From positions 8,877,412-8,941,411 of the forward strand of contig CAJINV010000002.1 of NCBI GenBank assembly GCA_905178155.1: a stretch of DNA of 64,000 nt, in the 5' to 3' direction. Numbering within the stretch: position 1 is the first letter of the stretch; each line of letters opens with the position of its first letter. This stretch comes from Amoebophrya sp. A120 (lineage: Eukaryota > Protista > Dinoflagellata). Made by a program: the position numbers and the translations under genes. Positions 16,584 to 50,000 of the stretch are shown in pieces. A model generated the notes under the pieces. That model saw only the letters and a program-made list of their open reading frames with translations. It was not told where the DNA came from and ran no database searches.

Positions 16584-19500
16584 TCATACTCCTCCTCCCT
16601 TCATCCGGGAGGGTGAATCTCGAATGTGCTGCGCGAACTGCGCTGCCACGTTACCATAGGCGCCTCCCTCCCGCTCCATTTGCCCAAAAGCGTCTTTGTC
16701 CTTCCCGCCCCTTCCTCCTGCTTTCCAGTCGGGCATGATCCCCCCCTGGTCCTCGTATCCGCCCCACCCTTCGTGGACCTCCTTCGCCTGGTCGTGAAAG
16801 TCCTGCTCGTCTTGCTCCCACTGGTCACGCTTCCCCTTCTTCTGAATCACCGCAACGCACAGCACGATGGACAGCAGCCCCAGCACCCCCAGCGGTAAGG
16901 CAATGCACACCCACATCGGACACCCGGCGAGGTTGCCCGAGGCCGGCGGCGCAACCGGCCCCGTGCCCGGGGCCGCGTCCGCCACCGCCTGGCCGCCCGG
17001 AACGCTCAACCCCCGGGCCTCGTCCATCAGCCGCCGGTACTCCGTGCTCATCGCTGGCACCGAGGCGATAGTGCTCCGAAATTTCGCCAACCGTGCGCAC
17101 AGTTGCGGGACACTGAGCAGTTTTGAGTGGACAATGATGGTTTATGATTTCAACAGTACTTCGTTCCTTTCTCGCTTAACCTTTTTTAGCAAGATAAACA
17201 TTCCATGAGTACTACCGTCCGAAACACAGCATTTATGAAATCCTAAAACAAACCTATTGGGACAGAAAGTCAAACAATTAGCACCTAGAGCCCGCAGGAT
17301 GTTGCTATTAATTTCCTTTATTCAAAAAAAGACTTTATCAATAAATACACGCTGAATTTCGCCACTGTCGTTTTCAGCAAGTCGGAATTCGACAAGCACT
17401 GCTCGCCCTCGAGTCTGCAGCACGGGATCAGGTCCTGCGTCGGCGACACTGCGGCGGGGATGGTCCGGCGCACCGATCCGTGCGCGTAGTCAAAATTTTG
17501 CACCACGTATCCAAGAAAAAAACACCATCACAATCACATTTGGGAGGTTTTGCATCAGAAATTTGTCTCGCATGACAAATTTTTCTTGTATTGCAAAAAC
17601 ACAAAGGGAAATCGCCCATAGCTCTTGACTGTGATGCATTTTTGCGCATGACAAAAAATTTTGTATTGCAAAATTGTGCAAAAGTGATTGTGATGGTGTT
17701 TTTTTCTTGAATACCACGTCGCGAACGGGCAAACAGTCGTGGGCCCCCTCGTGGGCCTCCAGCTCGCAGATCTGCGACACGATGCCGTCCACGCGGGCGA
17801 ATTCCCCGTCCACAACTTGCGTGTTTTGTGTCGTGGTGGGCACCGCGTGCGTGGCTTCGTCCGATTTCCGGCGCGCCTGTCGCTTTCCCGTCTTCAACAC
17901 TTCGACGGCGGATGAGGAAGAAGCAGAAGGCTCGTCAATCGCAGTCGTGCTGTTTTTTGCCGCACTAGCCGCGCTTTCCAGATTTGTTGACGCGTCTGCT
18001 TTCGAAGAAGTGGCCGCTGCGTTCTTTTCCTTCTTCTTTTTCTTTCTCTCGCCTGTGTCCAAGTGGGTCGCTTTCACAACCTTCTGGACGAAGCTGCTCA
18101 GTGTTTCCTTGCCCTCGCCAAAAAATCGGTCGTACAGATGAGCTCCGGCGTGCTCGAAAAACCGCGTGGCCACCCCTTTCTTGCCGTCCCGCGGTGCCAT
18201 AAACATGGTCTTCTTCTGGTACTCGTGCCGCTCTTTCACCGTGTCAGGATGTTCCTCCGAGTCCGATTCCTCCTCCACCAAGTCACCTTTTGCGTCCAGA
18301 TGCAGGTGCTGCTGCTTCCTCGCGTGGTGGCCGTGTGCCTGTCTGGACTGGTCTAACTCCAAGTAGGACACTTCTGCGGCCGGTGTTTTGGCACTGGCGG
18401 GTCCTGCTGGTTCCGGCTTCGCATTCCCATCCGTGGCTGCCGGCGTGGAACTGAACGTTTCGGTGGTGGGAGCGGGGGTCGACGCAGATGAAGATGATCC
18501 GTCCTGCAATAAGGACTTGTCGTTTCCAGAACCAGCACCACTTGCTCGCGTAGTGGAACTCGCACTTCCGCTTTCTTCTGCCGTCGAGTCTTGCAGAAAG
18601 GAGGGGGAAGGCGACGTGGAAACGGATGGAGTCGTAGTACCGCTTTCCGTAAGCATTTCGGGCTTTTCCTGCAACGAAGGGGACTCCGTGACGGTAGGGG
18701 TGACAGTGCTGACGGGAACACCCGATGCAGCAGCGCCCTCTGAGTTCGAAAATCCTGCTGGGGGGCTTGCAGTAGTGGTCGCAACCGCCTCTGGGTCTTC
18801 TTGCAGGAAGGAAGGCGAGGTAGCCGGCGGGGAGGTTGTAATAGCAGTAGAAGGTGTTGCCGTAGTGCTGACTGGCGCGTCTTGCAGGACCGAAGGTGCG
18901 GTTGTTGTACCTGCCGGCGTTGTGACCGAACTTTCTGTTGTGGTTCCAGGTGCCTCTTGGAGGAAGGAAGGCGGCGTCGTGGTCCCTTTTGTCGAAGATG
19001 TAGTTGCATTGGTTGCATTGGAGTTTTCTGAAGACATCGTCGGAGACGGCACGATCACGGGAGGAGTCGCGGTGCTCTTGCTTCCCTCCACGGATGAACT
19101 TTCCGACGGTGCAGCCGCTTCCAGAAAAGATGGCGCGGTGGTGCTCGCCGAACTTGACGAGGGGCTGGGTGCCGGTGCTTCGGCTTGCAGCTTTTCGTTG
19201 TTTTCAGGAATGGTCTTGCCTCGCTCCTGTTCGGTGAACGCTGCAGACGGTTCACTTCCTTCCTCCTGCGCAGCCTGCGGCCGTCCGGCGTTTTGATCGA
19301 TGCTACCTCCGCTTTCCGGTGGCGTGGCCGATGAGGATGGACCACTTTGCGGTTGTGTTTCTACTGCTGGCGCTGCCGTGCTGGAACCTGTTTCGGCACT
19401 CCAGCCATTTTCCTTCTTGCCCTCGTCCCCTGGTCCGGCAGGGGTGTTGCTCTCAGGCTTACCGGCATCTTTCCCTTGGTTGAACGACGTGGCGCTGGTC

Positions 19501-21938
19501 GCGTCATCCTTTTCCCGAGACTCCGAAGTAGAACTACCGCTTCCGACTCCTTTGGTCGCACCACCGCTGCTCGTTTCCGGCGTCGGAACAGGTGTTGTTG
19601 TCGTGGTCTCTTCCTCTAGTGACATTGAAGCCTCTGAGGAGGATTTCGTGTGCTCTGCACTGCTGTCGCTGCTTGTCGAGTTGTTGTTTTCGTGCTTTGT
19701 TCCTTGTGCAAAACTGGACTTGTGCAAAGAGAGCTGTTCAGGCGCGCTTCCCAAGGGAACTGTCCCGGTCACGCGGGCGCTACTTGCCTGCTGGATCAAT
19801 TCGCCGTTCGAACCCTTCGTTCCCAGGCCACTACCGCCACCGCCAACATGTTCAGTCGCCTTTTGTTCCGCTACAAGCATGACCTCGTGGCGCGCCTCCT
19901 CGCTAAGATTGGACAACACAGTTGCTGCGGTTTCCTTGGCCTGTTTCGTGTCCGAATTCCCGATCAAGACCTCCATCGCGCCGTCCAGCACGTTCTCGGC
20001 CGTCTGCCGCTGCTGTTCCGCAGACATCGGGACCTCGGGTTCGATCAACCGCGACCCCGGGGCGTAAGGGGCCGCAAATGGCGCCGTAGAAGTGGTCGTG
20101 GTCTGGTCATAGCAGTCCAAGCACCCGCCCGCTTTCTCCTGCAACAACGAGGACGCGGGGGGCGGCGGAGGGGCTCCAGCGCCAGCAGCTCCCTGCTGCT
20201 GCGCGTTTCGCAGCTCGCTGTTTGCGCCATAGTCTTGTTCCTCAGGAGGGGGCGGGGGCGGAGAGGCTTCGGATGGAACCGCCTGCGGAATCGCCGCGCT
20301 TTCCAGCGGTGGCGGTTCTTGGTCGGCCGCCTCCGCTGCTGCTTCGGCCTGCGCCGCCGTTGCGGCGGCCTGAGCGGGAGGCATGTCCGCGATGTTTGTG
20401 GGCGCCGGCGGAGGTGCAACGACCTGGGTGGTAGCAGCCTTTTTCTTGTTGCGCCCGTATATGCAGTCCACGCAGTCCTCCAAACGCGAGGGAGACGGGA
20501 CCGGCCTCGCCAGCGCCAGTCCGGCCGGCATCGGGCCGGCCGTGGTCACGACGGTCGGCTGATCACCAACCTTCTCCGCGAAGCTGCCCGACGGCTGCTC
20601 CACGAGTGGCGGCGGTGCGGGCGGCAAGTTGTCAGCTACCGCGGCTTTGTCCGCGGCTACGTGGGCCGCGAGCGCGGCTTTTTCGGCCGCCGATTGCGGC
20701 GGCAGCGCGATTGCGGGTTTTGTGTGGCTTCCTTCTTTTTCAGTCGGGTAGCAGTCCCCCAACCCAAGGCAGCCTCGATCGGGAGAAGCCTCGCCGTTTT
20801 TCAACTGCTCTCCGGACAGCTGCTCCCCCTTGACGACGGCGGGCGAGGCCATAGGGGCGTGCGAGGCCGTCATCATCAGTTCCGGAGGGGAGGCAGGAGG
20901 TGCGCCGCGATTCGCTTGAGGTCGTGGAAAACTACCTGTGCCAATCGGCGGAGGCCCACCTGGCTGCTCTTCGAGCGCGCCCGTGGAACCGTATAATTGG
21001 CCCTCTGTGCTGGCCGTGGGCTTGTCCATCTCCGCTGTTGAGCCAGTGGATTCATGCGTAGGGGCTTGTTGGGTCGTCGTGCTGCTACCCGTCTCTTCAT
21101 GTTGTTCTCCTGCCGGTGATGACGCTATGTGCGGAGACGGAGTAGTGGTGGACATCTTGTGCTCCTCCTCCAAAAAGCTGGTAGCAGTACCACCAGGCTC
21201 TTTATTCTCTTGCTGGGCCTCCTGCTGCTGCTGCTGCTGCGCTTCCGAAGAGGCTGCTCCCCGCCCTTGCGCCTCCGCTAACGCGGCTGGGTTTTGCGTT
21301 GTGGTCGGGGCAGCCGTTGCGTTGGCCGATGCCGGTGGCGCTGGCATGGTTTGTGGAGTGTTGCTGTCGTCCACGACCGGTGGCAATTCCCCGTCCGCAC
21401 CATAATTGTTGTTGTCATTATCTGCGTTTGCACTGTTCCCTGCGGGGCCGGCGGGCGCAAGGTTCTTACTGTTTTCCTGGAATGATGACGATTTTTCTGG
21501 TGAACTTGGGATGCCAACAGTAGGCTCAGCACGATTTTGCCACCCCGCTAGTGAAGCCGGATTCTGTGTCGTCGACGAGCCCGCTGTAGCGTTGGCCTGT
21601 ACGGACGGCGGGGATGGCATGGTCGCTGGAGGTGTGGTGGGGGTACTTTCCTCCATCGGTGGCAATTCACCATCTGCTCCGTAGTCGTTGTTGTCAGTAT
21701 TCACATTTTTTGTTTTCTCTGCGAGCTGATTTTTGTTATTTTCTTGGAACGACGAAGACTCAGACGATGGACTTGCGTCCAAGCTCGGACGTGGTGCCCG
21801 ATGCAGGTCGAAGGCGGTAACGAAGTCCGAGATTGCGATCCCGAGCGCAATGGCTGACAATGAAACTGAAGCTCGGAAGTATGTCATTCTCTTTACATCG
21901 TGAAGATAAGAGGATACCTTTCTTCGGTTCACAGGCAT
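16584..21938 (-). CDS. Large mucin-like type I membrane/secretory precursor, 3 exons (21938-17714, 17502-17349, 17112-16584)
   Basis: Hydrophobic signal (VSLSAIALGIAISDFVTA), then an S/T/P/E-rich ectodomain. Removing element 17508-17713 plus one CCACG joins ...VRDVVQNFDY.... A GT-AG intron (17348-17113) joins FSVVPQLCARL in frame. This is followed by a TM helix (WVCIALPLGVLGLLSIVLCVAVI) and a cytoplasmic tail. Confidence 0.75.
17508..17713. mobile_element. TIR introner-like element, family A (206 bp), non-canonical intron
   Basis: TIRs TATCCAAGAAAAAAACACCATCACAATCAC / GTGATTGTGATGGTGTTTTTTTCTTGAATA. TSD CCACG at 17503-17507 and 17714-17718. Confidence 0.9.
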
Positions 21939-23263
21939 GATAATAGACGTTTACTTGAAATTGCGAAATAAATACTAGGTAAGGATGTATTGTACGAATG
22001 TGTGCTTGATCTTGCTAACAGCTTCTTGTGACGAAGGGGGCTTCTAAAATTTCTTTTTCGAGTTGTAGGGGGGCGGAACGAGTGCAAAATGAGTACGTGT
22101 GAAACTAGGACAAGAAAAGCTGAAAATCACTGGCCATGCATGATCAAGCAACAACAATGAGGTCTACTTGAACGTTCTTCTACTTGGTGTTCTTACGAAA
22201 GCCTGAACGACGAGGACAACTCCGAGAAGCACGACAAGGTTGCACGCAGAGGGAAGGGGAACAAGACGACCGAGGGCACTTACATTTAAATATGTTCAAT
22301 ATGTACTTTCCGCTTCGCCAACTGTGTACGAAACAAATCGAGCCGAGACAGCATGCATCGCACGACACCGACGGAGTCTAAGGTCTTCTTTCACGATGCA
22401 GCACAGAACAGACTCAAAACGAAAATCCAAATCATGATGCAGCGAGAACGCTAGCGTAAGCAACCGAAGTAGGCCGCGCACAGCGGAAAGAAAACCGAGC
22501 TGAAATGCCACTTGGATGCGCGCAAGCATCTTCCGCCTGAACGATGAAAAGAGACGCGAAAAAGACAGATCTTGTATATTGCAATCTTACCGAGGAGTCG
22601 CTTTATGAAATAGCACGCGAGGGGGCATCAAATTTACATTTATCATCCTGCTACGAAATCAAAACCCGAAGAACAAAATTTGACGTAGAGAAAATGATAC
22701 AAAACCTGAGCTCACGTCCACAGCCTGTGTCTGATATAGCCTCATGTAGTGTCGTTTTGTTTTATCGCTACGATCATGTGAATGTGTCGGGTGCTTTCAT
22801 ATCTTCATGCTGCTTTCACATCGTAAATTTTGGCCCTGGGCACTAAACCAAATTCACAATGGAGCACATGCATGTTGTCGCTTTCTCTATGTGAAATCGT
22901 CTATGTATGTGAGCAAAAAAAGAAGTTTGCGGATTGCACAGGGACGAGGTTGGCTTCCTTTGCGTGAAACTAACATCAAGAAGTGCATGCGTCGCGGGGT
23001 GCGTGTGTCGCCTTGTAGTATTCTTGTTGAAAAGAAGAGACAACTCTATTCGTCAGGTCTGTCTCCAAAGTATCGCAAACAGCAAACGCCGAAGGTCTAG
23101 CGCTTGATAGATGAAAAGGCCCTCTGCTAGCACCTAGCAGCGCTGGGATATCCAAGCACCGGCCTTCAAATTCGGAAGCGGAACGCATTTTTCCTCTCCT
23201 CGCAAGATAAAAAGGAAAAGCGAGATCATTTTATACATCGGTACAAATGTCCGACCGTGTCTT

Positions 23264-25611
23264 CTATCTGCTGAGCAGTGCGTTGCAGACGTCTTCGACG
23301 TGCAGTTTCCTCAAATTTGTGTACTTCTGCCCCGTTCCGACGAACACGACGGGCTGCCCGCTGACGTACACCATGGACAGCGCCGCGCCGACCTTGTCGT
23401 CCACGGTGTCGTACTTCGTGAGCAGCAAGCCGTCGATCCCCCGCGGGTTCACCCGGTCCGGGCTGAGGTCGATCAAGGAGCGGTTGAACTGCTTCACCTG
23501 GTCGATGCCGTCGTTCCCCGTGAGCGCCTCGCCGACGAAGAGCACCAGATCCGGTTGGTTCACGGCGACCATCTTGCTGATTTCCCGCATCAGCGGTTCG
23601 TTCCCCTGCATGCGGCCCGCCGTGTCGATCAGCACCACGTCGATGTTTTCCTTGGCCGCGTGTTTCAGGGCGTTCTTCGCAATCTCCGCCGGGTCCTTGC
23701 CGTAGCCGCGCTCGTACAGCTGCGCATCCAGACACCTCGCGTGGGTCTTCAGCTGCTCCACGGCGCCCGCGCGAAAGGTGTCACAGGCGGCGATCAAAAT
23801 CTGATAGGTATGGGTTTTCAGCTTGAAGAAGTAGTTCTTGGGGTATAGAAATGAATACTTAGCAGTGGTCCTGATGATGTTACACAGGGAAAGAACCTGC
23901 TCTGGCAAGTTCTCGTTTGAGACGAAAATTTAAATTTTTCCGAAGCAGACTTGTTCAAAAAAAAAAAATGAATACGCTCAGCCCGCCCTGCTTCTTCAGA
24001 TGATAAGCCACCTTCGCTAGATTTGTGCTTTTCCCGACCCCGTTGACTCCGATGAACGCGATGGAGAAGGGCCGCCCCGCGGCCTTCGCCTGCAGCGCCG
24101 CCCGCATGACGTCGACGCTTTTCTTCGGTGTCAGCAGCTGCGATATCGCCCGAACCATCTCGCGGTAGATGGTTTGCCGTATGGTAGTCCACGCCTCCGT
24201 TGTTTGGCCAACCAATGACTGGCGCACGCTCTCGAGCAAGCGGTCGGCGACCTGTTAAGTCGGATGTCGTGTGACTTCAAGATGATGTTTTGTTCTGCGT
24301 ATCTATGTCATTGCAGAACAGCAAGCAACGATATTCGTTTTCGTATTCACTTCGTAGCACCCCTCAACATCTCAACGAGTACCTCTTTCGCCACGTTTTT
24401 GTTAAGCAATTGGTCTCGTATTGGTGCGAGCAAGGGTGCCAAGTCGTCCTCTGTCAGCTTCTTTCCGCCGGTGAAACCTTTCATTTTACTGCTCAGCTTC
24501 CCCCAAATGCTGTTAGGAGCAGTATCGTCCACAGGCTCGATCAGAACCGGCTGTTGATGTTTTGCATGTGTAATATGGATTGTGTTGATGCTGATGCATT
24601 CTAAGAAAGTCCGTCGATTGCGAAAGCAAAATTGAAACTCGAAAGGCCCATCTACCTCGCCCGAGACATATTCAGAGGCATTAAGCCCCGTCGTGTGTAG
24701 CCCCTGTGAGAAAGCATTCATTTCGCAAGCTTTTATCTATACGTACCTTCTGATTGATCTCCGGCTCCCCGTCGTCATCGTCATCCAGGAACTGCGCGAG
24801 AGCTGCCGCGTTTTGGCTCTCTTCCGAGGCTTCATCCTTGCCGTCGCCGCTCTTCGAGAAGTCCAACTTATCTATGGCCTGCTTGTTCACCTTTCCGGCG
24901 CCGACCCACTCGCGCTTCCCCCGCCGCCCCGAAGCCGCGCCGTCTTCCGACTCCTCGGATTCCTTCTTGTCTGCGCCGTCGCTCACCCCGACGCGTTTGC
25001 CCCGCTCTGTGTCAGCGAAGGACCGCATTTCCGTCTTTTTCGTCAGCCATTCCCGGTCGAACTCCAGTTTTATACGCTCGAATTCGAGCTTGAAGTCGTC
25101 CCTGAACCTCCAATCTAACCGGTCACAGTTCGGGTCCAGCGTATTGGCGAAAGCGGCGGAAACCTGCTGGAGCAACCGGTCCAGGTACGCCATTTGCAAG
25201 ATACCCTGGCGTTTTTTTTAATTGCATGATAGACAAGCGAAAGTCTACTTTCGTCATTTCTAGAGTCTTCCACCGGCTTTCGTGCTACTTATCACAGGAA
25301 GAGATCTTCAACACCGATTGAACAATGCAAATGATCGTGTTGTTGAAAACATAGTTACACAAACAAATCATATGTCGTGCAACGAAAAATCCTGTAAGTA
25401 CCTGGTATATCAGCACAAACACGAGCTCCAGGTCGTTTCGTATTTTGCACTTCAGTTTGTAGTTGTCGACTTGCGTGGACGCACTGTCATCGTTTTGCTC
25501 CTGCAGAAGGACCGTCTTGATGAATTTGTCCACCGGGTCCTTGGCAAGCTTCAGTTCCCACCGGAACAAAACCACACCGGTTTTTGTGAACACAATGAAA
25601 TCGTCGATCAT
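23264..25611 (-). CDS. SRPRA: Signal recognition particle receptor alpha subunit, 5 exons (25611-25402, 25205-24747, 24550-24383, 24251-23976, 23800-23264)
   Basis: Longin N-terminus MIDDFIVFTKTGVVLF and GTPase motifs GVNGVGKSTNLAK, ACDTFRAGAVEQL, DTAGR, TKYDTVDDKVGA, GTGQKY. Four GT-AG introns were checked and are in frame. Confidence 0.95.
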
Positions 25612-31901: not shown

Positions 31902-33661
31902 TCATGTTTCTTTGGTATCTTTTTCGACTGTAAACTGACTGCTGCCATACCCGGCAGTTGTATCTACTTTCGTTTTCTGTTTCAAATCTGGCGCTGTCGC
32001 CTCAACATCCTTTCTCGTTGTACTATTCCTCCGACCTTCTGTCTGCTCTATTTCTGGCTCGATTTGAAAGTCCAGGTAAAAGATGCACTGTGATGAACCT
32101 TTTGTATTTTCAAAAGTCACGATCACGTTTACCTCCCGCTCTGCTTGCGGGTCTCTGGCCGCTCCTGGTTCCCTCGACCCGTCCTCAAAATTCTCCCTGT
32201 TCTTCTCCAGCATCATATCAGAATGAAAAATCCCCCCTCCCCATATCAAAACGAAACTTCTGATGCTGGATTTGAGTACACAAATCAGCTTTGTATTGCA
32301 GGAAAGCATTGCAGTCAGGTCCCCAGGCTAGGTAGGGGCGTATGCGCCTAGTTGTTCAGCATGGCAAGCGGCCCCCCTTTAGGCCCAACAGCATGACAAA
32401 TCGACTCCGCAATGGGGTGGAAGCTTCTGCCCTTGCCTTCTTGCAAAACAAATGTGATCTGTGACCTCAAATCAGCAACACAAATTTTCGGAAACATGCC
32501 TTTTCAATATGGGGAGGGGGGATTTTTCCTCTCAATACATCAGCTCCAGTAATTTCAAATCCGCCTTGCTGTCGCGCAGCGCAAATTCCGCACGCAAAAA
32601 CGTGATCACGCCCTTGAGTATGTCGGCATAGAATACCAACGCGTTCTGCAAATGCTGTTCGTGCGGATTCGCGACAGTTTTTGCCTGCCCTCCCGCCACA
32701 GGCGTGGTGTTTGTTGCAGCAGGTGCCGCCGCGGACGCGGCTACCGTCAAGTGGCATACCAGGTGCCTCACGGGCCGAAAGTCGTTGTCCCACAGCACAT
32801 ATCAAATGTAAAAATGTCTGGGTCTGGAAGAGTCATGCTGTTTCTGCATGACACAGAAGGTCTGTCATGGAAGCTCTGGCATCACAGGTTTCGAGAAGCT
32901 TCCGCAATGCCGAACCCGCATGACAAATCCCCCATTTTGGTGACAGAAAGTGAGCAGCTTTTGCTACCTATGCATGAGAGATTTTTGTGTGTTCTGAAAT
33001 GCGCATCACAAGTTGCATTCTTCCAGACCCAGACATTTTTACACTTCATAGCACAAAGCCTCCCGTATCGCGGTTCACCTGCAGCCGGTCCGAATGTATC
33101 AAATGTAAAAATGTCTGGGTCTGGAAGAATGCAACTTGTAATGCTGTCTGCGGATTCTAAAAATATCTGTGTTGCATGAGCAGCGAGAGGAGTCAGTTCT
33201 TGGCACGCCGAGAGGGCATTTGTCATGCGTAATTAGCATCAAGAAGCTCGCAAAAAATCTGTGATGCTAGCACCAGCATCACAGACCTCACGGGTCATGC
33301 AAAATGTGCATGGCAAGTCCCGACTCTTCCAGACCCAGACACTTTTACAATCCATAGCCTGCTTCCCGAAGCAAAAGCTCCACACCTCGCGGCACAGAAA
33401 TTTCACGGCATCCCGGTGCTCGCTGATCACCTTCTTTCGCAGCAGGTGCTTCCCGATCTTTTGCCCCAGTCGGAACGCCATAAACGTAGCCCCGGATGAG
33501 GTTGGTGGGCGAGTAGAATCCTCCTCTGGGAGGTCTACTGTTGGATGTGCTTTCGGTAACGTACCGATTCTGTGGTCCTTCTCGCTTTTTTTCCGGTTCT
33601 GCAACTGCAGAAACGCATTCTGGAAATGCAGCAAGACCGGGTAAGCAATCTCGCTGGTCAT
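31902..33661 (-). CDS. TRAPPC6: TRAPP complex subunit Trs33/TRAPPC6, 4 exons separated by three TIR elements (33661-33357, 33091-33051, 32794-32538, 32210-31902)
   Basis: The spliced product reads AFRLGQKIG...AVKFLCREVWSFCFGKQADRLQVNRDTGGFVLWDNDFRPV...FYADILKGVI. This matches the Trs33 pattern KF[IL]C[KR]..W...F.KQ.D.L..N..G.[FY]VL.D..F. Confidence 0.85.
32216..32537. mobile_element. TIR introner-like element, family B (322 bp)
   Basis: Ends TATCAGAATGAAAAATCCCCCCTCCCCATAT / ATATGGGGAGGGGGGATTTTTCCTCTCAATA. TSD CATCA at 32211-32215 and 32538-32542. Removal gives LELM-LEKN in frame. Confidence 0.9.
32800..33050. mobile_element. TIR introner-like element, family C (251 bp)
   Basis: Ends TATCAAATGTAAAAATGTCTGGGTCTGGAAGA / TCTTCCAGACCCAGACATTTTTACACTTCATA. 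TSD GCACA at 32795-32799 and 33051-33055. Confidence 0.92.
33097..33356. mobile_element. TIR introner-like element, family C (260 bp), inverted relative to 32800-33050
   Basis: Same TIR core TGTCTGGGTCTGGAAGA. Degenerate TSD GAATG (33092-33096) / GCCTG (33357-33361). The interior aligns by eye to the reverse complement of the neighbouring copy. Confidence 0.88.
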
Positions 33662-37700: not shown

Positions 37701-40628
37701 GGCCTCAGTGTGGTCCGTATGAACAGCTGCTGCTTCGTTCTGCTCCTGAACACCCGAGTGGTCTCCAACTTGCTCAGAGACGGGAGACGGAGATTCCGGG
37801 GGGGGAGGGCAATGAGCATTTCCATCTTGCGCATCACCGGGTGAGGGAACAGTCGCACTCGCAGCGGTGTTCAGGGCATATCCCCCGCTTACGCCGGATG
37901 GCAGAAGCTGCTGCTGCTCGCCAACCGGGTGGCTCTCCTGTGCCGGAAACTGTGGGAGCCCAAGCGGCGGCGTCCCAGGGGCTGCTACCGACAGCGAAGG
38001 CGGTGTGCTCGGAAGGGCCGGCCCTGGAATGATCTGCTCTGCCTGTAGTGCTACTGACGGGCTCTGAGGTATTATCGGCTGTTGCAGCTGTTGCGCCGCT
38101 TCCCCAACGCCAGCAGTGCCTACGACTGCAGTGGGAGCTTCTTGTCGCTGTTCCGCCCCCGGCTGCTGGATTTGCTGCTCAGCCTGCTGCGCATTCTGCT
38201 GCTGTGACCCTTGTTGTGCCGGCTGCTCTGCCTGCTGTTGCTGTGCCTGCTGCTGCTGGCCGAGCTGCTCCTGCCCCGGCTGTTGTGCCTGTTGCAACGC
38301 CTGCTGCGCGGCTGTTCCAACACCTGCCGCGGTTACTGCGTCAGTGGCTGCACCGGCGGTTGTGTCCGCGGTTGCGCCGGGGGCTGACTCGGCGGTTGCG
38401 TCACCGGCTGCTGCGCTGTTTGCGGCACTCGTCGCGGCGGTGTTTGCGTCGACAACGGTTCCCAGGGGGGGAGGTTGCTGTTCCTGATCGCCCGAGTTTC
38501 CAACTTGCCCAGAGACTGGAGAAGGAGATTCCTGGAGGGGAGGGCGATGAACATTTTCATCTTGCACAACAGCGGGCGGCGTCCCAGGCGCTCCTCCCAA
38601 GGGCGAGTCCGGTGTACTCAGGCCGGCCACCGCTCGACTCTGTTCCGCTTGTTCTGGCGGCTGTTGCAGCTGTTCCGCCGTTTCTTCAGTGCGAACAGAA
38701 CCATCTGCGAGTGGTGCAGCGGAAGCTTCATTCTCTCCCTGCGCCTGCATATCTTGTCGCTGCTGGTGCTGCGGCTCTTCCACACTCGGCTGCTGTTGTG
38801 CCGGCTGCTGCTCTTGCTGCTGCTGTAGTGCCTGCTGTGCCGGCTGTTCGTCCGGCTGTTGTTGCTGTGACTGCTGCTGCTGGGCCGGCTGTTCATCTTG
38901 TGCACTGACGTCCGCCTGCTGCTGCGCAGGCTGTTGTTGCCCGTTCTGCGGCTGCCCGTGCTGCTGTTGCTGCGGTTGTTGTGCAGGCTGTTGCGGCTGT
39001 TGTAGCGACTGCTGCGGTTGTTGTAGCGGCTGTTGCGCATTCTCCCCGTCATGCTGCTGCGCTGGCTCCTGTTGCAGTGGCTGTTGCGTTTGTTGCAGTG
39101 CCTCTTGCGGTTGTTGCAGTGGCTGTTGCGGCTGTAGTTGCGGCTGTAGTTGCGGCTGTACTTGTGGCTGTAATTGCGGCTGTTGCGTCGGCAGTTGTTG
39201 CGGCGTCGATGGTTGCGGCATCGGCGGTTGTGGCGTCGGTGGTTGCGGCATCGCCGGTTGTGCCGGCGGTGGTTGTGCCGTCGGCGTTGGTGACGTCGAC
39301 GGTTGTGGCGTCGACGGTTGAGGCGTCGACGGTTGAGGCGTCGGTGGTTGTGCCGTCGACGGTTGAGGCGTCGGTGGTTGTGCCGTCGGTGGTTGTGCCG
39401 TCGGTGGTTGTGCCGTCGGTGGTTGTGCCGTCGGTGGTTGTGCCGTCGGTGGTTGTGCCGTCGGCGGTTGTGCCGTCGGCGGTTGTGCCGTCGGCGGTTG
39501 TGGCGTCGGCGTTTGTGGCGTCGACGGCTCCTGCTGCAGCTTTCCAACCAGGCTTGCTGCGGCTGCTTCCGGCAATCCCTGCGAAACCAGTGCTTTTTTC
39601 ACCGCTTCCCACCGCGCGCGATCTCGCGTGCTCGTGTTCTGGGAAGGGTGCCCGCCACTGCTCCCATCGTTCAGCATGGCGACCAAGTCCTTTCCCTCCT
39701 CTTCCCACGACTTGCAGCAGTTCCGCACCAGAAAAGTGTATCGGTTCTTCGGATCCCCCTGTTCGGACGTGGAGAGGTCGTCCCCCTCCTTCGGGAGCAG
39801 CCGAAACGCAGCCCAATCGAAAATCTTCGTCTCACACGTTTTGGGGCCGAAGTGCGAATGCTTGCAGACCCGGCCGAGCGCGGTCTCAACGTCGTGGGCG
39901 GGAAGATTCGCCAGCGGCAAGTGTTTGCACTTCACGGGAACCCGCTGTTGCTGCGCTGGGTCCACTGGATCGTCTGCAAGAGCAGACAAACCGTCCATCA
40001 TCTGCTGCTGGAGCTCGACAACAGAAGGCTCCTGCGTGGCCAGAAACCCGCTGCTGCCCTTATTCTGTCCCGGGTTGAACACCCCCTTCGCTCCGGCAGC
40101 AACTGTTGTTACGTTTTCATCATGCAAACGAATACATAGTCATAAATGTATCGCTCCAACAACGTCCTCGCCGTCGGCGAGGTGTTCATCAAACGACCTC
40201 CAAGGCAAAAACGAATACAAGTGCGACATCATCAACATCCTGAAAAAGTCAGGCTACACAATGCAATCGAGACACCATAAAAAACGCTTATAAGTACACA
40301 GAAAATATGTTGTACTAATCCACGTGAGGAAGCCCGCTCCGCAAACTGCAGCGACCATGATGAAAAACACCGGCGACAGCAGCACTGCCGCGACGCCTCC
40401 GCCCCCCGCGGCACCTGCACGCGCGCCGCTCGCCTGAAACGAGGGCTTTCTCGATACGAGGAGGGGTTGATCCTGCTCCGGGTTATTGTGCTGAAAGCCC
40501 TGGTTTTCTTCTTCGTCATACGAGTACGACCGGAGGTGCAAACGGGGCCGCCCAGAGTCGGCATTGGACGTTGGATGGTTCATCCCACCCACAGACGCCG
40601 GTGGATGTTGGTCATCTACACCTGCCAT
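34800..40628 (-). CDS. Very large Q/P/A/E-rich mucin-like protein; probable upstream exon with a TM segment (40628-~40315) and main ORF 40127-34800
   Basis: 1775-aa ORF with a Cys-containing N-terminal block, (QPPTA)n repeats and polyQ-rich tracts. The upstream ORF has the hydrophobic stretch VAAVLLSPVFFIMVAAVCGAGFLTWI. The exon junction is not firmly established. Confidence 0.65.
39195..39525. repeat. Coding 15-bp tandem repeat (GGTTGTGCCGTCGGT-like; encodes QPPTA/QPSTP)
   Basis: About 20 consecutive units are visible directly. Confidence 0.9.
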
Positions 40629-41776: not shown

Positions 41777-44700
41777 TTATGTGGGCAACTTCACTCCTCG
41801 GTCGCAGACCAGGCACAAAGTCACCTGGTTGGACCCGTCCGGCGGGATGAACTCCCCGGGCAGGATGCCCAAGTTCAGTGTGACGTTGACCAATTTCCGC
41901 GCGTTGCACTTCGGACAGGTCGTGCCCGTGGGTTCACAACTTTTCACCGCCCGCGGCAGCCAGACGACCTCCTTGCATTTGGGGAACTGGTCACACGACA
42001 GCCGCCAGTTGGTGTTATCCTTCACTTTCAGCACCATTTGCCCGTTCCGACACTTCCCGCACTTCGCCACCGCCTGCTGCGGCCGGCCGCCGGCCAGCTG
42101 GCAGGTCGCGTGCCGGCACTGGAAACAGCGCATGTTGGCGGGGGTCGGAAGGTTGTCGTTCGGAAAATCCGGCGGATTGTTGAAGCAGTAGGGGCAAAGC
42201 GTGTGCTGCGTGTTGGTCACATTGTTCTTGATCAAGACCGTGCCCGTGTTGCAGATGGGGCACGTGAAGTTCCGGTCGGTGATGGTCTTCTCGCTGGCCG
42301 GGGTTCTGGAGGGCAGCAGGAGCAGCGTGTTGCCGCCCGCGGTGCAGTTTTGCTGCAAATTGCACCGAAACATGTAGTTCTGCACCACCAGCTGTGGCGT
42401 GTTGCTGTTGGAGGCTGAATTTCCCTGTTTTCCCTTGCCTTTTTTCTTCATCGCGGTCTTCTTCTTTCCCTTGCCGCCCTTCGCATTACTAGTGCCAGCA
42501 TTTGCTCCCGCAGCACCACCCCTCGAGGACCCCTCCGCCCCCTCCGCAATCGTGATGGCTGCATTCGAGCCGCCCTTGTTCCCGCGCGGCACGGTCATCT
42601 CTTCCTGCGCGAGGAGGTCCAGCCGGCCTTGGCCGCAGCGGCACGGCACAATCCCGGCCTGGATCAGGCGGACATTGGTGTTAGGATTGTTCGAAGTAGA
42701 TGCATTCGGAGCGGCAGGCTGCCCATGTGGTCCTCCTCCACCTCCACCTCCCGGGCCGCCGAAATTCGTACCCGGACCCCCGCCCCCTCCGGGGAAAGAC
42801 CCACCTCCCGGGCCTCCAGGAGGGGGGAAGTGGGCAGCTCCAGGCCCACCACCCGCTCCCGGAAAACCTCCGCCCGGACCCGGTCCACCTGGCGCACCTC
42901 CAGGTCCCCCCGCACCACCTGGACCTCCAGGACCCGGCCCGCCGCCCGCACCCGGAGGTCCACCAGCGGCGCCCGGCGGTCCGCCTGCTCCCATGTGGAA
43001 GTTGCCCATCACGTCTGCGAAGTACGTGCCCAATTTCCCGTCCAGCGTCCCCGGATTCTGGCTGATGTTCACGAACAGCTGCTGCATGTGCTGCAAGCAG
43101 TTCTGCAAAAACACGTTCTTTTGCTGCTGGTTCAGCGCGATCCGCGTCATCTCCGCCTCCATCGCCGCCCGCAAATCCGGCTTCGAGATGTCGTACCCCA
43201 GCAGAGCCGCGAACTCCTGATACCCCTCGACCAGGGCCAACCCGAGGGTGGTGGGCGCGAACCGGTTTTGGTTGTTCTTCACCGAGTAACTGCGGTCCTG
43301 AATGGTCTGGATGTGCGTGGCCATGGTGGCGTCCGTGCCAATGCCAAACCGATCCATCAACGCGATCAGCTCCGCTTCGGTGAGCAGTTCCGGCGGCTGC
43401 GTCGTCCCGCTGGTCATTTGCAGCTCATCCACCACGCACGGCGTCTGATTCGCGTGGTGAAACACGGGCTCCAACACTCGATTCACCACGCAAAGAGCCG
43501 CGGGTAACAACGTATCCGTTCGCCCCCAACGGTCGTAGGGGTAGACTTCCAAAAACCCCTTGTCCGTCACGCGCAACCCGTTCGCGGTGAACTCCTCCTC
43601 GTTTTCCGGGGGGTTGGTACTCGCTGTCACGGAGGTCTTCTCGCCCGTCGCGTCGGGGGAAAGGCAGGCTAAAAAGTGCCGGGTGATGAACTCGTAAATC
43701 TTCCACTTCCACCCATTGATCCCGTTTTCGTTCTCCTGCAAAGTCTTCACCGGGTGGATCGGCGGGTGGGCCTGGTCGTCCTTCGGCCCGTTGCGCGGGT
43801 TGGTGAACCGATTCAAATTATGCACCTGTCCGTTCACGAACAGCCGGTTCGCCACGTAGTGGCCCCAACTGTTGTGGTTTGCGTGGACAATCGCGAGCTG
43901 TTTCAAATCGATACTAGGGTGGAACTTCTCCGTCTCCGTCCTCGGATAGGAGATATAGCCCGCTTGGTACAGCTCCTCGGCCAGTTTCATAGTTTGCGCG
44001 GAGGGGATTCCGAAATACGTACTACATTTTTTCGTCAGTTCAATGGTGGCCAGCGGGATCGGGCGCCAATGCGTCACGTTGCGGATTTGCACGTCCGTGA
44101 CAATCAGTCTGCGGCTGTTCGCGGACTCCAGTACGTCCTCAAAAAAGTTCAAAACCGCAACCCGATCGAACAAGCGGTTGCGGTGCCAGGTAAACTCAGT
44201 CAAGGACGGGTCTCGGTTTATTGGCTGATTGTTGTTGTTTGCGTTATTTGTCCCTCTATTTCCCCCGCCGCCGCGCCGGGTATTTCCTGTTCCTCCAAAG
44301 TTGTTTTCCGAACTTTTGTTCGCCTCGAAGTTCGTGATTTCGTCCTGCGACAGATTGTGCGTCTTCACGACCAGTTTGATTCCCCAGAACGGCTCGGGCA
44401 GGAAATTTCGGATCAGTTGGTACCGTTCCTATCCCACGAAAAAACTGTTTCACTGTGATGATTTTGCAATATCTGCATCACAAGTTTCTTACACATGACG
44501 CGGAAAACTTGCCATGCGCGCTTCCCAAGGGAAAACACGCTTCAAGATCCGATGTCTTGCAGGTGTAGCAAGACAAACACCTTGCTGCTTCGTTCTGTGC
44601 ATCACAAGTTCACAGTGAAACAGTTTTTTCTTGCGATAGTTCCACGACGAACCCCAATGTCGGAAACTGACAGGGGCCGTACGACTATCCTGAGTAAAAA

Positions 44701-46429
44701 CGTACCCACACCATAGTTGTCATGCAGATTTGCCATGACAGGAACATGTGTGATGCGCAACCCCATGAAAGGCATTTTCAATCGTGTTTGGGAACTTGTA
44801 ATGCTGTAAACAGGATCAGCAGATCGATTTGTGATGCGGCTTTCCTTGCTAAATTGCACTACCTTACAGGCTGAAACTTGTCATGCGTGACTCCCAAAAC
44901 TCCTAGGTTTGTGTTGCAAAATCCCCATCTTGACTCTGGTGTGGGTACGTTTTTAATCGGGCTAACGACAGTAACTGGTTCGCCAAGTCCGGGAACCTTC
45001 GCTGGTACCGGAGACACATAAAGCGCGTGAAAGCTGCGCCGATTCTGAGATCGATCTCCGTCCGCGCCTCTACGGCGTCCGCGAGGGCTTTGTTCGGGAT
45101 TTGCAAATTTTGCACGGCGTTGGTCAAGTCTTGGAAGGTTAAAGCGGAAAAGACCGCCCGCTTTATGACCAGGTTGGGGTTTTTGTTTAGCGCAACCTCC
45201 AGCACTTCGTACCCGATCGCTTCCCCCTCCCGGTCACAATCCAGCCACAGAACGATCCAGTCGGACTCCCGGGCTAACTCCTCGATCATCCTCTTCAGGG
45301 GCAGCATGTCCCGGGGCACGAACCGGTTCACCGGTTGGTTCAGAAGCAATTCCACCGGAGGCGGCCCGTTCTGCCAGGATTTGCACGCCTCCGGGAAGTC
45401 GATCTGCATCAAATGTCCACGAACGGCGGAAACCTTCATCTTTACCTGCGTCCCCTGTATTTGATAATTGAACTCGTCCACGTTCACGCCGTTGAAGCCC
45501 TGGCCCCCGATTCGGCGCCGATTCACGTTTGCATTCCGCGCTAGGTGCTCGGTGATGCCCCGCTGCACGGAGGGTTTTTCCGCGATGTTCATGATTCGGC
45601 AATTCGGAAAGGGGGGCAGATTGGCGTTGTTGTTCTGCCCATTCTGGTTGAAGAACGCATTGTTCTGGTTGTTTGCTCTGCGCCGCGGCGGCATCTTCGC
45701 GATTTGCGCAGCGACTTTGTCGCTGGGGGAGGGACAGGGGGAAAATGAGGTGCAAGTTGATACACTGGTGTTGGTCTCCGAAGGCGAAGTTGTCTGACAA
45801 TCCTCCACGTTGTCAGGAGGCAAAGGATTAGTTGATGCAGGGCCTAAATGGGCTGCTTCAGAGGAAAACAGAGCTCGGAGATGCAGTTCTGTCTCCTCTG
45901 AGCCGATTCTGGAGCCGCAGGACGGAGTTGTCGTATCGTGTTCGTGTGGCGCCTTTCGTGGGGTAGAAAGATCTTCCGCCGCCGCGTCCTCAAGTATTTT
46001 CGATGTGACGGTCCCATTTCCGCCTGCTGGTGTGCCACTGCTAAAATGTCGCTTCAACCGTCGCGGGTCATCATGATTTTCGCCTCTAGAAAGGCGTCGC
46101 TGTTGCTGCTTCACCAAATCAAGTCGCGAGCTTTGTGCGCGGCAGCTACCGAGCGTCAGATGTTCCGCATCCGCCCAGACATTTCGAAATATGCCATTGG
46201 GGCGATGCGCATCTACATATTCAGTAGAAATATCAAACGCAAGTGTGCGAAAAGTGCTGAGATGATGGCGTAAAGTTGTAAAATGCCTCGGCAGGCGCGA
46301 TTGAAATTTGTCCTGTGGACGAAAAAAAGTCAACAAGGTAGTGGAAGAGTAGTGCGTTGGTGGAACAACGGAAACGTAAGGCTTGCTGGCCGTGGATAAA
46401 CTTCTAGTCAGACGTCCTCCTGCACTCAT
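41777..46429 (-). CDS. TOP3A: DNA topoisomerase III alpha, 3 exons (46429-44965, 44680-44639, 44424-41777)
   Basis: TOPRIM motifs IAEKPS and WLDCDREGE; IDLRIGAAFTR; spliced SYGPCQFPTLGFVVERY; catalytic GYISYPRTET; AHPPIHP; GIGTDAT; C-terminal C4 zinc ribbons (CPYCFNNPP, CDQFPKC). Confidence 0.95.
44430..44638. mobile_element. TIR introner-like element, family D (209 bp)
   Basis: Ends TATCCCACGAAAAAACTGTTTCACTGTGA / TCACAGTGAAACAGTTTTTTCTTGCGATA. TSD GTTCC at 44425-44429 and 44639-44643. Confidence 0.92.
44686..44964. mobile_element. TIR introner-like element, family E (279 bp)
   Basis: Ends TATCCTGAGTAAAAACGTACCCACACCA / TGGTGTGGGTACGTTTTTAATCGGGCTA. TSD ACGAC at 44681-44685 and 44965-44969. 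Colinear with 47350-47628. Confidence 0.92.
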
Positions 46430-47091
46430 CTAAGATCAAATTCGGAAATGGTTATCGTTGATGTACGTATAGTCCTGGTGTGCGGCTACTGTCTTTTCTG
46501 ACAAGACCTCTGCACACACGGGACAACGATTCAATGCCAAATCTTTGAGTCTGATGTGACTTCAGCAAGCATTTCGTGGTTGTCCCTTCGCAGAGAGATG
46601 CGCCACGGTAAAAAATCGAGGACAGCCTCCTGGCCACGATTCAATTAAAATTCGCAAAAAGTAGCAATCGGAATGGCGATTTTTCGTTTGCAGACCACGA
46701 TTGGAGAGCTACTACACATGAGTGACGCAGGCGCAGTTGAGAATTTCACGACGCATCAAACAATCCGACGAGACTATGATTTACAGATTTAATTTTCATC
46801 GCTGCAGCAAGACGCAGGTACACGCACGATAAGACAAAGACGCGGAGCTATAGGTTTTTCACCGGTTGATGCCTTCACGACACGGAAAAAACGACTACCA
46901 GACGATAATACACCTTTTCATCCGAACACGGTGGCAAGTATCACAAATGGCCTGTTGCATGGTTGTTGTCGCGAGCGTCGCGATCTAATGCGCTGTACGT
47001 GAAGTTTGCAATGACTTGATCCTGCAAGCATTATTCTAGCGTCAGTTTGGTCGTCCTTAAACGAACTTTTTACGGTGGCGAAAGCTACCTT

Positions 47092-50000
47092 TTACGCTTT
47101 GTTTTTCTTCCTTCTCTTGGCTTCCAGTTTTCCCATTCTGGCTTCCTTATCGGCGTTATTCCCCGTCGGTATGCGCTTTTTCACCGAGATCTTTTGTCCG
47201 AACTGCAACAAAGCGTTTTCCCCCTCTGCCAGCGTCTGTGCCTCCTCCTCGTCGATGGTGGTAACCTGCCCGCCAATGTTGGCGTCAATGTCGACTTTCT
47301 TCACTTCAGCGCTGCTGCCGGAAGCGTTTTTCCTCTTCTCCTCCATCTGTATTAAGAGGAAAAACGTACCCACACCAGAGTTGTAATGCTGATTTGCAAA
47401 GACAGGAAGACTTGTAATGCGCATCTCCATGAGCGGAATTTCTAGTCGTGATTTGGCATTTGTAATGCTGTAACCAGGATAAGCAGATGGATTTGTGATG
47501 CGTTAGCCCTTGCTAACCTGCACTACAGTACGGGCTTGAACTTGTGATGCATGAGTCCCAAAACTCCTAGGTTTGTGTTGCAAAATCCCCATCCTGACTC
47601 TGGTGTGGGTACGTTTTTACTCAGGATAATCTGTCGTTTGACCTCATCAGACAGCATCGGCTCGAGCGCCTCCGACCACACACGGATTAGGATATGAACT
47701 GCAAAAATGTCTGGGTCTGGGAGATTGCGAGATTTGTCATGCTTGTCTGGCATGACTCTGAACTCTGTGTTGCATGGCCGCGAAGAGCTCCTCCTCGGTG
47801 TCATGCAAAAACGCAGTTTCTCATGCGGAGTACGCAACTCAGAACCATGGAAAAAACTTGTCATGCTTGGCAGCGCATTATAGTGAGTTCACTACTCCCT
47901 TTCCTGCATCACAAGTTTCCAGACCCAGACATTTTTACATTTGATATAGGAGCTTCGTAAACAACGCGTGGGTTTGCGACACAGGAAGCTGTAACTCCTT
48001 CGACACCTGCTCGAACGTCTTCTGCTGGCAGCCGACGGCGAGAAGGATGGCGGCGTGCACCGCGGAGAGTTGTAAGTTGCAGGGCGCACCTTTATTTGTC
48101 GCTGGTGCGCCACTGTTGACAGCGGCATTGCTGCTACTCGGTGCGACAAATTTCCCGTCGAAATACAGACTCGCCAGCACCGGGAGCAAATCCTGAATCA
48201 GCGCCACCTCGGCCCGCTTGTTCGCGAAGAGCTCGATGCGGTGCAGGTCGTGTCTCGTGACTTGCTGCAAAACGCAGTTCAGCAATTGCTCAGAGTGGGA
48301 AACACGATTTTCATCTGCATCCGTCAGAATTCCAGGTGCTACCGAGCTCGAGCTCGGCTGCCCGGCGACGGAAAGTGCGAGATTCAGTGGCAGTTTTTGG
48401 AACTGTTGCGTTTTCAGCAGTCGCAGGAACCTACACCGGAAATCTTTGTGGAACTCGGCCAGCCAAGTCGCGGTCGTCGCTGAATGTCGCTTGTTGGAAC
48501 TTGTAGAAGCTTTACCACCACTTCCCGTGGCCACCATGGACGATGAGCCCATTCTTCTCAACAGAATTCCGCTGTGTTCACCAGTCACGTCGTTCGCCGT
48601 CTGCCGGATGTAGATCGGGTCAAACTTCAGCTTGTTGTGCCAAAATTCGAACAGCGGCAGAGTAACGCCAAAGCTGGTTCCGAGCCAGTCGAGCTCGAAT
48701 ACGGGTTTCGTGTCTTGGACGGACGAAAGCAAGGCCGGAATCTCCTCTTTTACGGTCAAAGCTTGGGAGTCGGCGGCCGTGGAACTTTTACTATTTCCCT
48801 TTCCTGTTTTTGACTCCTTTTCCTCCTCATCTCCGTACCCTCCCGCCGGCACCATTTCCAGATTGCACCACTTGATGAACTGGGAAACCGCCTCTTGACC
48901 GTAGCCCTGCCGCATCATCTGCGGGTGCGTCGCGATGCGGACAATCCTGGCGCCCTTCAGAGAACCGAAATTAGCGTCGGAAAACTGCTGCGAGATCGTC
49001 CAGGAGATCATGTCCCCGCTTGGACGAAGGCCGCGGGCGAGCGAGTTCGCCACCGCCTCCTTGTTCAGCGCCCCCTCGGTCGCGACGTGCATCGCGACCA
49101 GGATCTCTGGAATCGTATCGGACTCACCGGAGTCGTTCTGTATTGTAGACAAGCACTTTCGTAGAATTTGAAAGTATTCGAGGCATAGAATGAGCAAATA
49201 TGCTACTCTAGCTAGAAACGCCGCGGTGGTACAACCTCTAATGGATGCATAAAAACCAAGTCACCAATAGTAAACACAGCGAAGTTATTTTCTATACCGT
49301 TGAATCCTCCCCGTCGGACTGGTCCGAATCTTCCCGACTCGGCGCCAGCAAGACGAATAGGTAATGCCCCGGCGCGTCGGACAACAAGATCAGATCGTTT
49401 GGACTGTTCTTGTAGTGGCTCGCGACAAACAAACCCGTTAACTTCTTTAAGAACTTCTCCGAGGCCCCGTGGTAGCTGAACAACGCCGTTCGGTCGACTA
49501 GGAACAGCTCGCACTGGTCCGGCATGGGGCACCCTACCTTCTTCATTTTTTCCAGTGCTTTTTTGCTGGAAACCGATTCCGACGCGTCCAGGAGGCACAA
49601 CTCGTTCAGCCACGCCTCCACCGCGTCGTTCAGGCAGTATCGAATCGGCTCTTTCAATTCGATCTCCGCAGAGAGTTTCTTCTGGTGTTTCAGATCCTGT
49701 AACAGTTTCAAGGACAAAGACCGACCGGTCCCCTCGTACCCGTTCACGGTGGAGGACATTAACGTCAGGTATGGCCCGAGCATCTGCTTGATGATGGGGA
49801 GCGGAATGGCCGCCGCCTCGTCGATGATCAGCATCTCGGCCTGGGAGAGCGCGGTCCCGTGCTGCGAAACGATCTCCGGCGGGATGTACTGGATCGTTTG
49901 GCGGTGGTTTTTGAACACGTTGACCCGGACGATGTTGCCGCGTTTGCTGTCCCCGTGTTTCAAATTCAGATTCTGGTTGGTGTTTGATTTCTCCAGATCC

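Follow-up and report, generated by a model that had tools for sequence, protein, structure and literature searches.

Spliced inverted-repeat elements with TAT-N7-A-tract ends in an Amoebophrya sequence and their likeness to A120 introners

The eight short terminal inverted repeat (TIR) elements in the window, the stretch of 64,000 nucleotides analysed here, are introns, a point absent from the original prediction. They are almost certainly Amoebophrya A120-type introners, and it is highly probable that they are both introners and of transposase-driven origin. Their end pattern, TAT-N7-A-tract, was already published in 2021 and is not a discovery. Possibly new are the splicing of elements in either orientation, a cut register that one site places to within a base of TAT, an internal motif array with three-turn spacing, and ends like those of IS3EU/GingerRoot.

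Elements and host genes in the window

All eight elements were found where the original prediction had placed them (no strand is assigned to the elements):

E1, 17508..17713: core CACCATCACAATCAC, 206 bp, 5-bp duplication exact
E2, 32216..32537: core TCCCCCCTCCCCATAT, 322 bp, 5-bp duplication exact
E3, 32800..33050: core TGTCTGGGTCTGG, 251 bp, 5-bp duplication exact
E4, 33097..33356: core TGTCTGGGTCTGG, 260 bp, duplication copies differing at 2 of 5 positions
E5, 44430..44638: core CTGTTTCACTGTGA, 209 bp, 5-bp duplication exact
E6, 44686..44964: core CGTACCCACACCA, 279 bp, 5-bp duplication exact, sense 5′ end TAG
E7, 47350..47628: E6 family (84% identical), 279 bp, 5-bp duplication exact
E8, 47693..47946: core TGTCTGGGTCTGG, 254 bp, 5-bp duplication exact

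Exact TAT-N7-AAAAA was present at 14 of the 16 ends, and the two deviant ends were those already named, AAAAG at 33356 and TAG at 44964. The looser form, TAT, then seven nucleotides that are less conserved and three or more As, described 15 of the 16. The window held 18 matches to TAT-N7-AAAAA against an expectation of 1.22 ± 1.00 (100 shuffles, largest 4), 14 of them element ends. The other four (541, 17196, 22906 and 60158), which had neither a partner end nor the internal motif, were rejected as chance matches. The predicted 5-bp target duplication was also confirmed: a flush direct repeat was exact at 7/8 elements, the exception being 33097-33356.

Seven of the elements interrupt three genes:

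41777..46429, minus strand: TOP3 (DNA topoisomerase III; Pfam Toprim and Topoisom_bac), interrupted by E5 and E6, which leave a mini-exon of 42 nt between them
31902..33661, minus strand: TRAPP subunit (weak Pfam TRAPP match under the cut-off, E 1e-4), interrupted by E2, E3 and E4
47092..51780, minus strand: NAT10/TmcA acetyltransferase (Pfam), interrupted by E7, E8 and canonical GT-AG introns

E1 lies close to the 3′ end of a long minus-strand ORF. The TRAPP subunit at 31902..33661 is presumably Trs33/TRAPPC6-like. The best match of TOP3 was to Amoebophrya sp. A25 (57% identity, E 2e-153; next match 44%). By sequence comparison, the host is assigned to Amoebophrya, a marine parasite, at genus level, and is not A25 itself.

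Constant parts of the ends and the internal motif array

The ends were also compared in a wider sample of 153 loci (627 kb, ~482 kb distinct) from one metagenome scan, covering 157 of about 530 stretches. This sample was biased toward one family by the search pattern and may come from species other than that of the window. The largest family had 143 copies within the 0.48 Mb or so of distinct sequence chosen for that family. A finder presupposing neither motif gave TAT at both ends of 106/119 elements, in a sample skewed to one family. Position 2 was A in 0.97-1.00 of ends. AAAAA, which had been called universal, was exact in only 309/512 ends of the wider sample; one family was fixed for AAAAG (51/56 ends) and another had mostly AAAAC. 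The constant part is TAT and AAA.

N7 is not a free spacer, having C at position 4 in 0.76 and G at position 9 in 0.66 of ends (family-weighted). As predicted from the window, it was the least self-complementary part of the ends in the wider sample as well: left/right identity was 0.69 at positions 4-10, compared with 0.98 at positions 1-3, 0.91 at 11-15 and 0.91 at 16-27 (n=256, from a finder that selects on TAT/AAA and excluded 29/285 pairs with more than five core mismatches). One family carried 44 N7 haplotypes, two of them dominant, among 140 elements.

Across the 153 loci and the window, a finder without a duplication assumption revealed an exact flush 5-bp repeat at 188/242 elements. 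Other lengths were rare (2 bp in five elements, 3 bp in one, 8 bp in one, none in 47), and an exact 6-bp duplication at the flush register was found in 0/242.

The families had been regarded as unrelated; this view was not borne out, as all of them carry an internal array of the motif GCA(A/T)NACA. Its density was 19.7/kb within elements vs 2.4/kb outside, the array was present in 12/12 families and in 8/8 window elements, and 41% of family-weighted spacings were 31-33 bp, about three helical turns. One example lies in E7:

47389..47581, minus strand: GCA(A/T)NACA array of six sites, with spacings of 31, 49, 33, 48 and 31

Removal of the elements from transcripts

RNA-type contigs dropped the element and one 5-nt copy at 5/8 sites; a joint was displayed for no other element. 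These contigs came from one sample and their RNA status is a tool-based guess; the same runs skip canonical GT-AG introns (49138-49297 in NAT10, skipped in X1) and therefore behave as RNA. The E2 joint skipped 327 nt (322+5; X2, X3 and X4) and the E3 joint 256 nt (251+5; X1-X4). At E4, the joint 33091/33357 skipped 265 nt (260+5; X1-X4) with an ambiguity of only 1 base. Because the duplication copies of E4 have diverged, its splice register is fixed: the intron begins with TAT or with the base just before it, and its end lies 5 or 4 nt past ATA. For E5 and E6, X1 record 4 retained 42 nt between 44424 and 44965, the 498 nt removed being 209+5+279+5.

Reading frames agreed with these joints. Those in the TRAPP-subunit gene yielded a single open frame, and removal of E5 and E6 restored the TOP3 frame. 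The NAT10 frame was restored by excision of E7 plus 5 nt and by excision of E8, where one piece of X1 record 5 is bounded at 47947. For E1, in a gene outside the RNA-type contig cover, excision of the element plus 5 nt carried the 1410-codon frame on for 63 codons, further than the alternatives (26 or 5). Retention of exactly one 5-nt copy was needed in 23/24 elements with independently called flanking frames (24 callable of 159 scored). No run catalogued as RNA contained the stretch. From the raw RNA runs X9 and X10, just 126 reads and 4 reads were placed here; almost all matched element sequence at 90-95% and were uninformative.

E3 and E4, which lie in one gene and are both spliced, are in opposite orientation (score 167, vs 78 for the same orientation). 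Orientation relative to the gene was 44 vs 62 (p=0.10).

One reading, possible but somewhat unlikely, is that TAT-N7-AAA is mainly an RNA splice code, read by a modified spliceosome that lacks U1, or by some new splicing factor, and conserved across families since only its carriers are removed from transcripts. It is favoured by the precise excision of all tested elements without GT-AG and by the E4 register within one base of TAT. Of the canonical introns examined, 4/4 begin GTAT or GTAC, and U1 snRNA was undetected in A25 or A120 (PMC7789003). Lineages passing through both orientations would likewise be expected to show symmetric ends. Several results stand against it. Departures were equally frequent at sense 5′ and 3′ ends (TAT 8 vs 6, A-tract 40 vs 43, of 125), so that motif decay has no 5′/3′ asymmetry. 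E6 is spliced despite its 5′ TAG, which indicates that TAT is not strictly required for splicing. TA...TA is a transposon-end signature in non-intronic elements. E3 has no internal motif on its sense strand and E6 none on its antisense strand, and both are spliced; that tier, at least, is therefore not an RNA-strand signal. Nor did any region of the stem show an excess of G-U over A-C mismatches in sense RNA (33 vs 26 in the core, p=0.44), and RNA-level selection on the stem thus has no support from that test. The terminal stem is predicted to pair in the core with a probability of 0.94-1.0 at positions 16-28.

Neither GT nor AG was favoured at the junctions (the duplication ended in G in 43/125, and 8/125 had a GT-AG register of any kind), and neither G before TAT nor AG in the duplication was enriched in oriented elements; with 125/256 elements orientable, these tests had modest power. 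The splice-code reading and the transposon-based explanation given below are compatible and can both hold.

Relation to described elements and proposed origin

In the description by Farhat et al. (2021), the ends of A120 introners open with TAT, continue with seven nucleotides of lower conservation and then have three or more As; the direct repeats measure 3-5 nt, with their border given as unknown and a 5-bp example in the legend of Fig. S19 (PMC7789003). The window elements share with these introners the TAT/N7/A ends, direct repeats at the junctions, a length of about 240 nt, the non-coding nature, the many families, the non-canonical splicing and the hairpin. Family lengths in the 2025 dataset (208-209, 252-261, 278-279 and 319-322 bp) also match (PMC12130899). 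There was no defining difference; here the repeats are 5 bp as measured from the element ends, and one site fixes the register. The published A120 introner text consulted mentions neither the internal motif array nor orientation independence.

The original prediction recognised no named signature in TAT...ATA with a 5-bp target site duplication (TSD). This does not stand, as the ends fit A120 introners (PMC7789003) and IS3EU/GingerRoot has TA...TA termini as its named signature (PMC10045372, PMC6839031). IS3EU/GingerRoot elements are also alike in their TIRs and little target-sequence preference (PMC10045372, PMC6839031), whereas their duplication is usually 6 bp and GingerRoot has TIRs of 100-150 bp in elements of 4-13 kb, unlike the short window elements. 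No report of IS3EU/GingerRoot as introners was found in a literature search. Ginger2/TDD has a duplication of 4 or 5 bp (PMC10045372) or 6 bp (PMC6839031), compared with 5 bp here; Ginger1 and Ginger2 end in TG...CA, in contrast to the TA...TA of the window. The introns derived from MITEs in Fritillaria and euglenids are likewise transposon-like, with TIR and TSD, and are removed without GT-AG, a stem bringing the ends together in euglenids; their motifs and hosts are different, and Fritillaria prefers AG-AC/AG-AT whereas no dinucleotide is preferred here (PMC11282704).

A protein lead comes from Gozashti et al. (2025), who reported homology to an integrase-like ORF and "5-bp TSD, TA/TA Termini" for A120 family 38; their dataset places this family under Ginger, whereas the main text denies it Ginger homology, termini and TSDs (PMC12130899). 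The integrase-related DDE transposase of IS3EU/GingerRoot is compatible with this lead. Farhat et al. found no transposase in A120 and took this to rule out general transposase-mediated mobilisation (PMC7789003). Our own searches revealed none either. A Pfam scan of 34 window ORFs showed no transposase, a viral contig search gave 0 matches, and for 0 of 19 unpaired ends could a partner with matching duplication be located farther away. Six elements of 481-972 bp with unique inserts contained no DDE domain and no coding copy among 30/54 peptides of at least 45 aa scanned, the only match being one weak low-complexity DUF3807.

Spread without a DDE transposase through an RNA intermediate, by reverse splicing or retrotransposition of the excised hairpin, was left open by Farhat et al. 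and would accord with a transposase being neither reported in A120 nor found here; it is improbable, because the strict 5-bp flush duplication, fixed terminal bases, random gene orientation and three-turn internal array are traits of DNA transposon ends and family 38 has integrase-like homology. RAG signals and Transib have a terminal CAC, a heptamer-12/23-nonamer arrangement and a 5-bp duplication. It is very hard to credit that these ends belong to a new eukaryotic superfamily without ties to described elements and act as RAG/Transib-like recombination signals: the 5-bp duplication (not diagnostic alone) and a terminal motif with an inner A-tract at fixed spacing are shared, but the ends have TAT without CAC, heptamer or nonamer, the A-tract begins at position 11, both spacers are 7 nt with no 12/23 asymmetry, the motif was already described and the only published protein lead is integrase-like. 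With N7 not a free spacer, the likeness drawn in the original prediction is an analogy only.

The preferred reading is introners moved by a transposase. The elements are short non-coding TIR elements that lie in exons, flanked by a 5-bp target duplication, and are spliced out with one duplication copy; one putative DDE transposase, supplied in trans, likely spreads them. This transposase probably reads a layered DNA code consisting of TAT as the cleavage site, AAA one turn inward and GCA(A/T)NACA sites arrayed at intervals of about three turns; the family core need only match the opposite end. The earlier suggestion that a protein reads two end motifs fits the symmetric decay, the lack of a G-U excess and the third motif at about three turns; because no protein was found, its reading of DNA is something we infer. 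The transposase could be integrase-like and related to IS3EU/GingerRoot, an assignment we make tentatively. In RNA, we lean slightly toward the ends pairing into a stem that joins the junctions, with a modified spliceosome cutting at a fixed distance from the ends and not at GT-AG. Canonical introns of this genome begin with GTAY, a start that a 5′ cut one base ahead of TAT would imitate.

A more speculative and rather doubtful extension would derive A120-type introners, as non-autonomous copies, from a single integrase-like transposon lineage not yet described, which makes 5-bp duplications and is sister to IS3EU/GingerRoot. The transposase of this lineage would read TAT, AAA and the three-turn array and ignore the core, and U1-less splicing machinery would read the same ends as an RNA stem and cut by distance, N-UAU replacing G-UAY. 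If this is true, insertion at any sequence and in any orientation would give a scarless intron.

These findings narrow two questions, namely how some 30,000 introners are mobilised where no transposase has been reported for the genome, and how splicing proceeds with neither GT-AG nor U1. A search image for the autonomous element can now combine the fixed 5-bp duplication, the TA termini and the phased internal motif. Scarless excision that is independent of orientation and sequence, with a register within one base, provides a concrete basis for minigene tests.

Element ends and their duplication

All eight elements with terminal inverted repeats (E1-E8) lie within coding genes on the minus strand:

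17508-17713 (E1): in a long low-complexity ORF, minus strand
32216-32537 (E2), 32800-33050 (E3), 33097-33356 (E4): in a TRAPP subunit gene, minus strand
44430-44638 (E5), 44686-44964 (E6): in TOP3, minus strand
47350-47628 (E7), 47693-47946 (E8): in NAT10, minus strand

A pattern scan of the 64-kb window revealed 18 matches to TAT-N7-AAAAA (read inward; N7, positions 4-10 of the end) vs. 1.22 expected. Fourteen of these are ends of the elements, which are 206-322 bp long. The original prediction had given the coordinates of all eight elements, 14 exact ends and two exceptions (AAAAG at 33356, TAG at 44964); all were confirmed. A flush 5-bp direct repeat (duplication) is exact in 7/8 elements; the two copies of E4 mismatch at 2/5 positions. 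Neither a relaxed finder nor a motif-cluster scan revealed a ninth element in the window. A repeat of a different type from these intron-forming elements (introners) occupies 7-243: a tandem pair (129-bp spacing, 95% identical) of a ~100-bp inverted-repeat unit, with a GC-rich palindrome and A/T tracts and without TAT ends.

A metagenome scan with the commonest end gave at least 157 stretches; the 80 listed are from a single assembly. We analysed 153 loci (627 kb, ~482 kb distinct) together with the window; these exclude the window's own region and may be from another species. In the 15 longest matches, their elements were 74-88% identical to window elements. The end code had been predicted to be universal, with a positional logo as the check. 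The weighted logo from the loci and window was near-invariant at positions 1-3 and 11-13 over 12 families; N7 was partly conserved, and A frequency at positions 14-15 (0.82, 0.75) was below that at 11-13. A finder without TAT/A assumption showed TAT on both ends in 106/119 elements of this sample, a proportion subject to search-pattern bias. A finder without duplication assumption showed an exact 5-bp repeat in 188/242 elements and an exact 6-bp duplication in 0/242. Without core filter (256 of 285 elements retained), exact TAT-N7-AAAAA was present at 309/512 ends and TAT-N7-AAA at 468/512, the latter figure being inflated by the filter. These findings demonstrated the element anatomy and its 5-bp duplication.

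Excision from transcripts

Joints were taken from contig runs of RNA type (X1-X4; one sample), whose RNA nature is presumed; canonical GT-AG introns are skipped in them. The contigs omit 327 nt at E2, 256 nt at E3 and 265 nt at E4; every one of these gaps equals the element plus 5 nt. Record 4 of X1 retains a 42-nt mini-exon and lacks 498 nt, corresponding to E5 and E6 plus 5 nt each; E6 was excised despite TAG as its 5′ end. At E8, a contig piece boundary falls at 47947 (X1). Splicing was shown for five of the eight elements, with frame support for two more; E1 had no contig cover and E7 no displayed joint. The TOP3 and NAT10 frames were joined by excising the element plus 5 nt, and not plus 0, 3, 4 or 6. 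The spliced TOP3 stretch has 1385 codons with one stop only; its closest database match is from Amoebophrya sp. A25 (57%; second match, 44%), which makes a different Amoebophrya the probable host. In the wider sample (159 elements scored), one 5-nt copy must stay in 23 of the 24 elements whose flank frames were both independently callable.

E4 is informative on splice register because its duplication copies have diverged. Its joint is ambiguous by one base only; the intron therefore starts at TAT or 1 base earlier and ends 5 or 4 nt past ATA. GT-AG was absent from the E4 junctions in both registers. E3 and E4, members of one family in opposite orientations within a single gene, were both excised. 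Among 125 oriented elements, the duplication showed no splice-like base preference, and orientation relative to the gene was not significantly skewed (44 vs. 62, 19 ties). Motif decay did not differ between 5′ and 3′ ends, and G-U was not in excess. Excision is precise, involves one duplication copy, occurs in either orientation and has no junction sequence requirement.

Raw RNA reads from another sample (X9) matched an E4-family end (33097-33145) at 90-95% identity and had other flanking sequence; they come from a copy elsewhere that is either unspliced or not an intron. Three of the seven inter-element gaps (33051-33096, 44639-44685, 47629-47692) are just 46-64 bp and leave mini-exons of 42-59 nt. 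The E7 and E8 families again lie ~60 bp apart, with unrelated spacer, at metagenome locus L135:146-698. The short gaps and this pairing suggest that new elements insert beside existing ones.

Pfam-supported genes of the window are all on the minus strand; co-oriented gene blocks have been described for Amoebophrya. In ORF 1194-6167 (minus; 1657 aa), the N-terminal part is a HicA-like domain (E 4e-9 to Pfam HicA_toxin), here in a eukaryote; the remainder is unannotated. Two long low-complexity proteins (17490-21950 and 34800-40139, both minus) have no Pfam match; an RNA-type contig covers the gene of the latter, in which a 15-bp unit is arrayed at 39089-39568.

An internal motif common to all families

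GCA(A/T)NACA was found in 8/8 window elements and 12/12 families, averaging 2-5 per element, at 19.7 per kb within elements vs. 2.4 outside. The families, called unrelated in the original prediction, are therefore kin or served by a common binding protein. Successive same-strand sites were 31-33 bp apart in 41% of cases (family-weighted), and 93 bp also recurred; three helical turns equal 31.5 bp. The motif is missing from the sense strand of E3 and the antisense strand of E6. Because both elements are spliced, the motif looks like a putative DNA-binding array rather than a branch point.

Proposed mechanism and relation to published systems

A trans-acting DDE transposase would recognise the internal array together with TAT and AAA, and would cut with a 5-bp stagger. 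In the transcript, the paired ends would form an RNA stem, allowing the host splicing machinery to cut by position; predicted pairing was 0.94-1.0 for the core and 0.54-0.90 for N7. All four canonical introns examined (minus strand; 23801-23975, 28553-28743, 40103-40315, 49138-49297) start with GTAT or GTAC and have an A/C-rich ...CAG end without polypyrimidine tract. Because of these starts, a cut 1 base 5′ of TAT would mimic a normal donor with its first base free; the E4 joint allows such a cut, short of proof.

No transposase was found among window ORFs (Pfam), by an unpaired-end partner search or in the long-element peptides scanned, and Farhat et al. 2021 (PMC7789003) reported none for A120. 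Longer copies in the TGTCTGGGTCTGG family (L025:632-1465, L048:571-1051, L049:3862-4492, L071:4317-4820, L073:7024-7995, L074:10903-11398) carry inserts of 200-690 bp that are unique, unlike the short elements and one another. No DDE domain was found in the peptides scanned from these long copies; their inserts are possibly captured host DNA.

The end code is real and previously published: these are Amoebophrya A120-type introner ends. Farhat et al. (PMC7789003) describe inverted repeats with a TAT start, seven less-conserved nucleotides and at least three As; a total of 29,850 repeated introns, grouped into 1,954 families; direct repeats of 3-5 nt, hairpins and an unknown border position; and no U1 snRNA. 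Comparable non-canonical introns are reviewed in PMC11282704.

The termini resemble those of IS3EU (TA..TA ends, TSDs usually 6-bp, grouped with GingerRoot; PMC10045372) and GingerRoot (TA...TA in 72/77 elements, 6-bp TSDs; PMC6839031); however, the elements have a 5-bp rather than a 6-bp duplication. Ginger membership was rejected. Family 38 of Gozashti et al. 2025 (PMC12130899) is TIR-flanked with Copia/Gypsy-like ORF homology; its dataset entry reads 'Ginger; 5-bp TSD, TA/TA Termini', and the paper's text describes it as without Ginger termini. Membership of Transib/RAG, to which the ends had been likened, was rejected on generally known features of those systems.

No link between introners and IS3EU/GingerRoot was found in the searched literature; nor were the internal array and orientation independence found in the main text of Farhat et al. 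or the searched Amoebophrya literature. All three may be new, although figures, supplements or other papers could describe them. Functionally, the elements resemble non-autonomous TIR transposons that also serve as introns.
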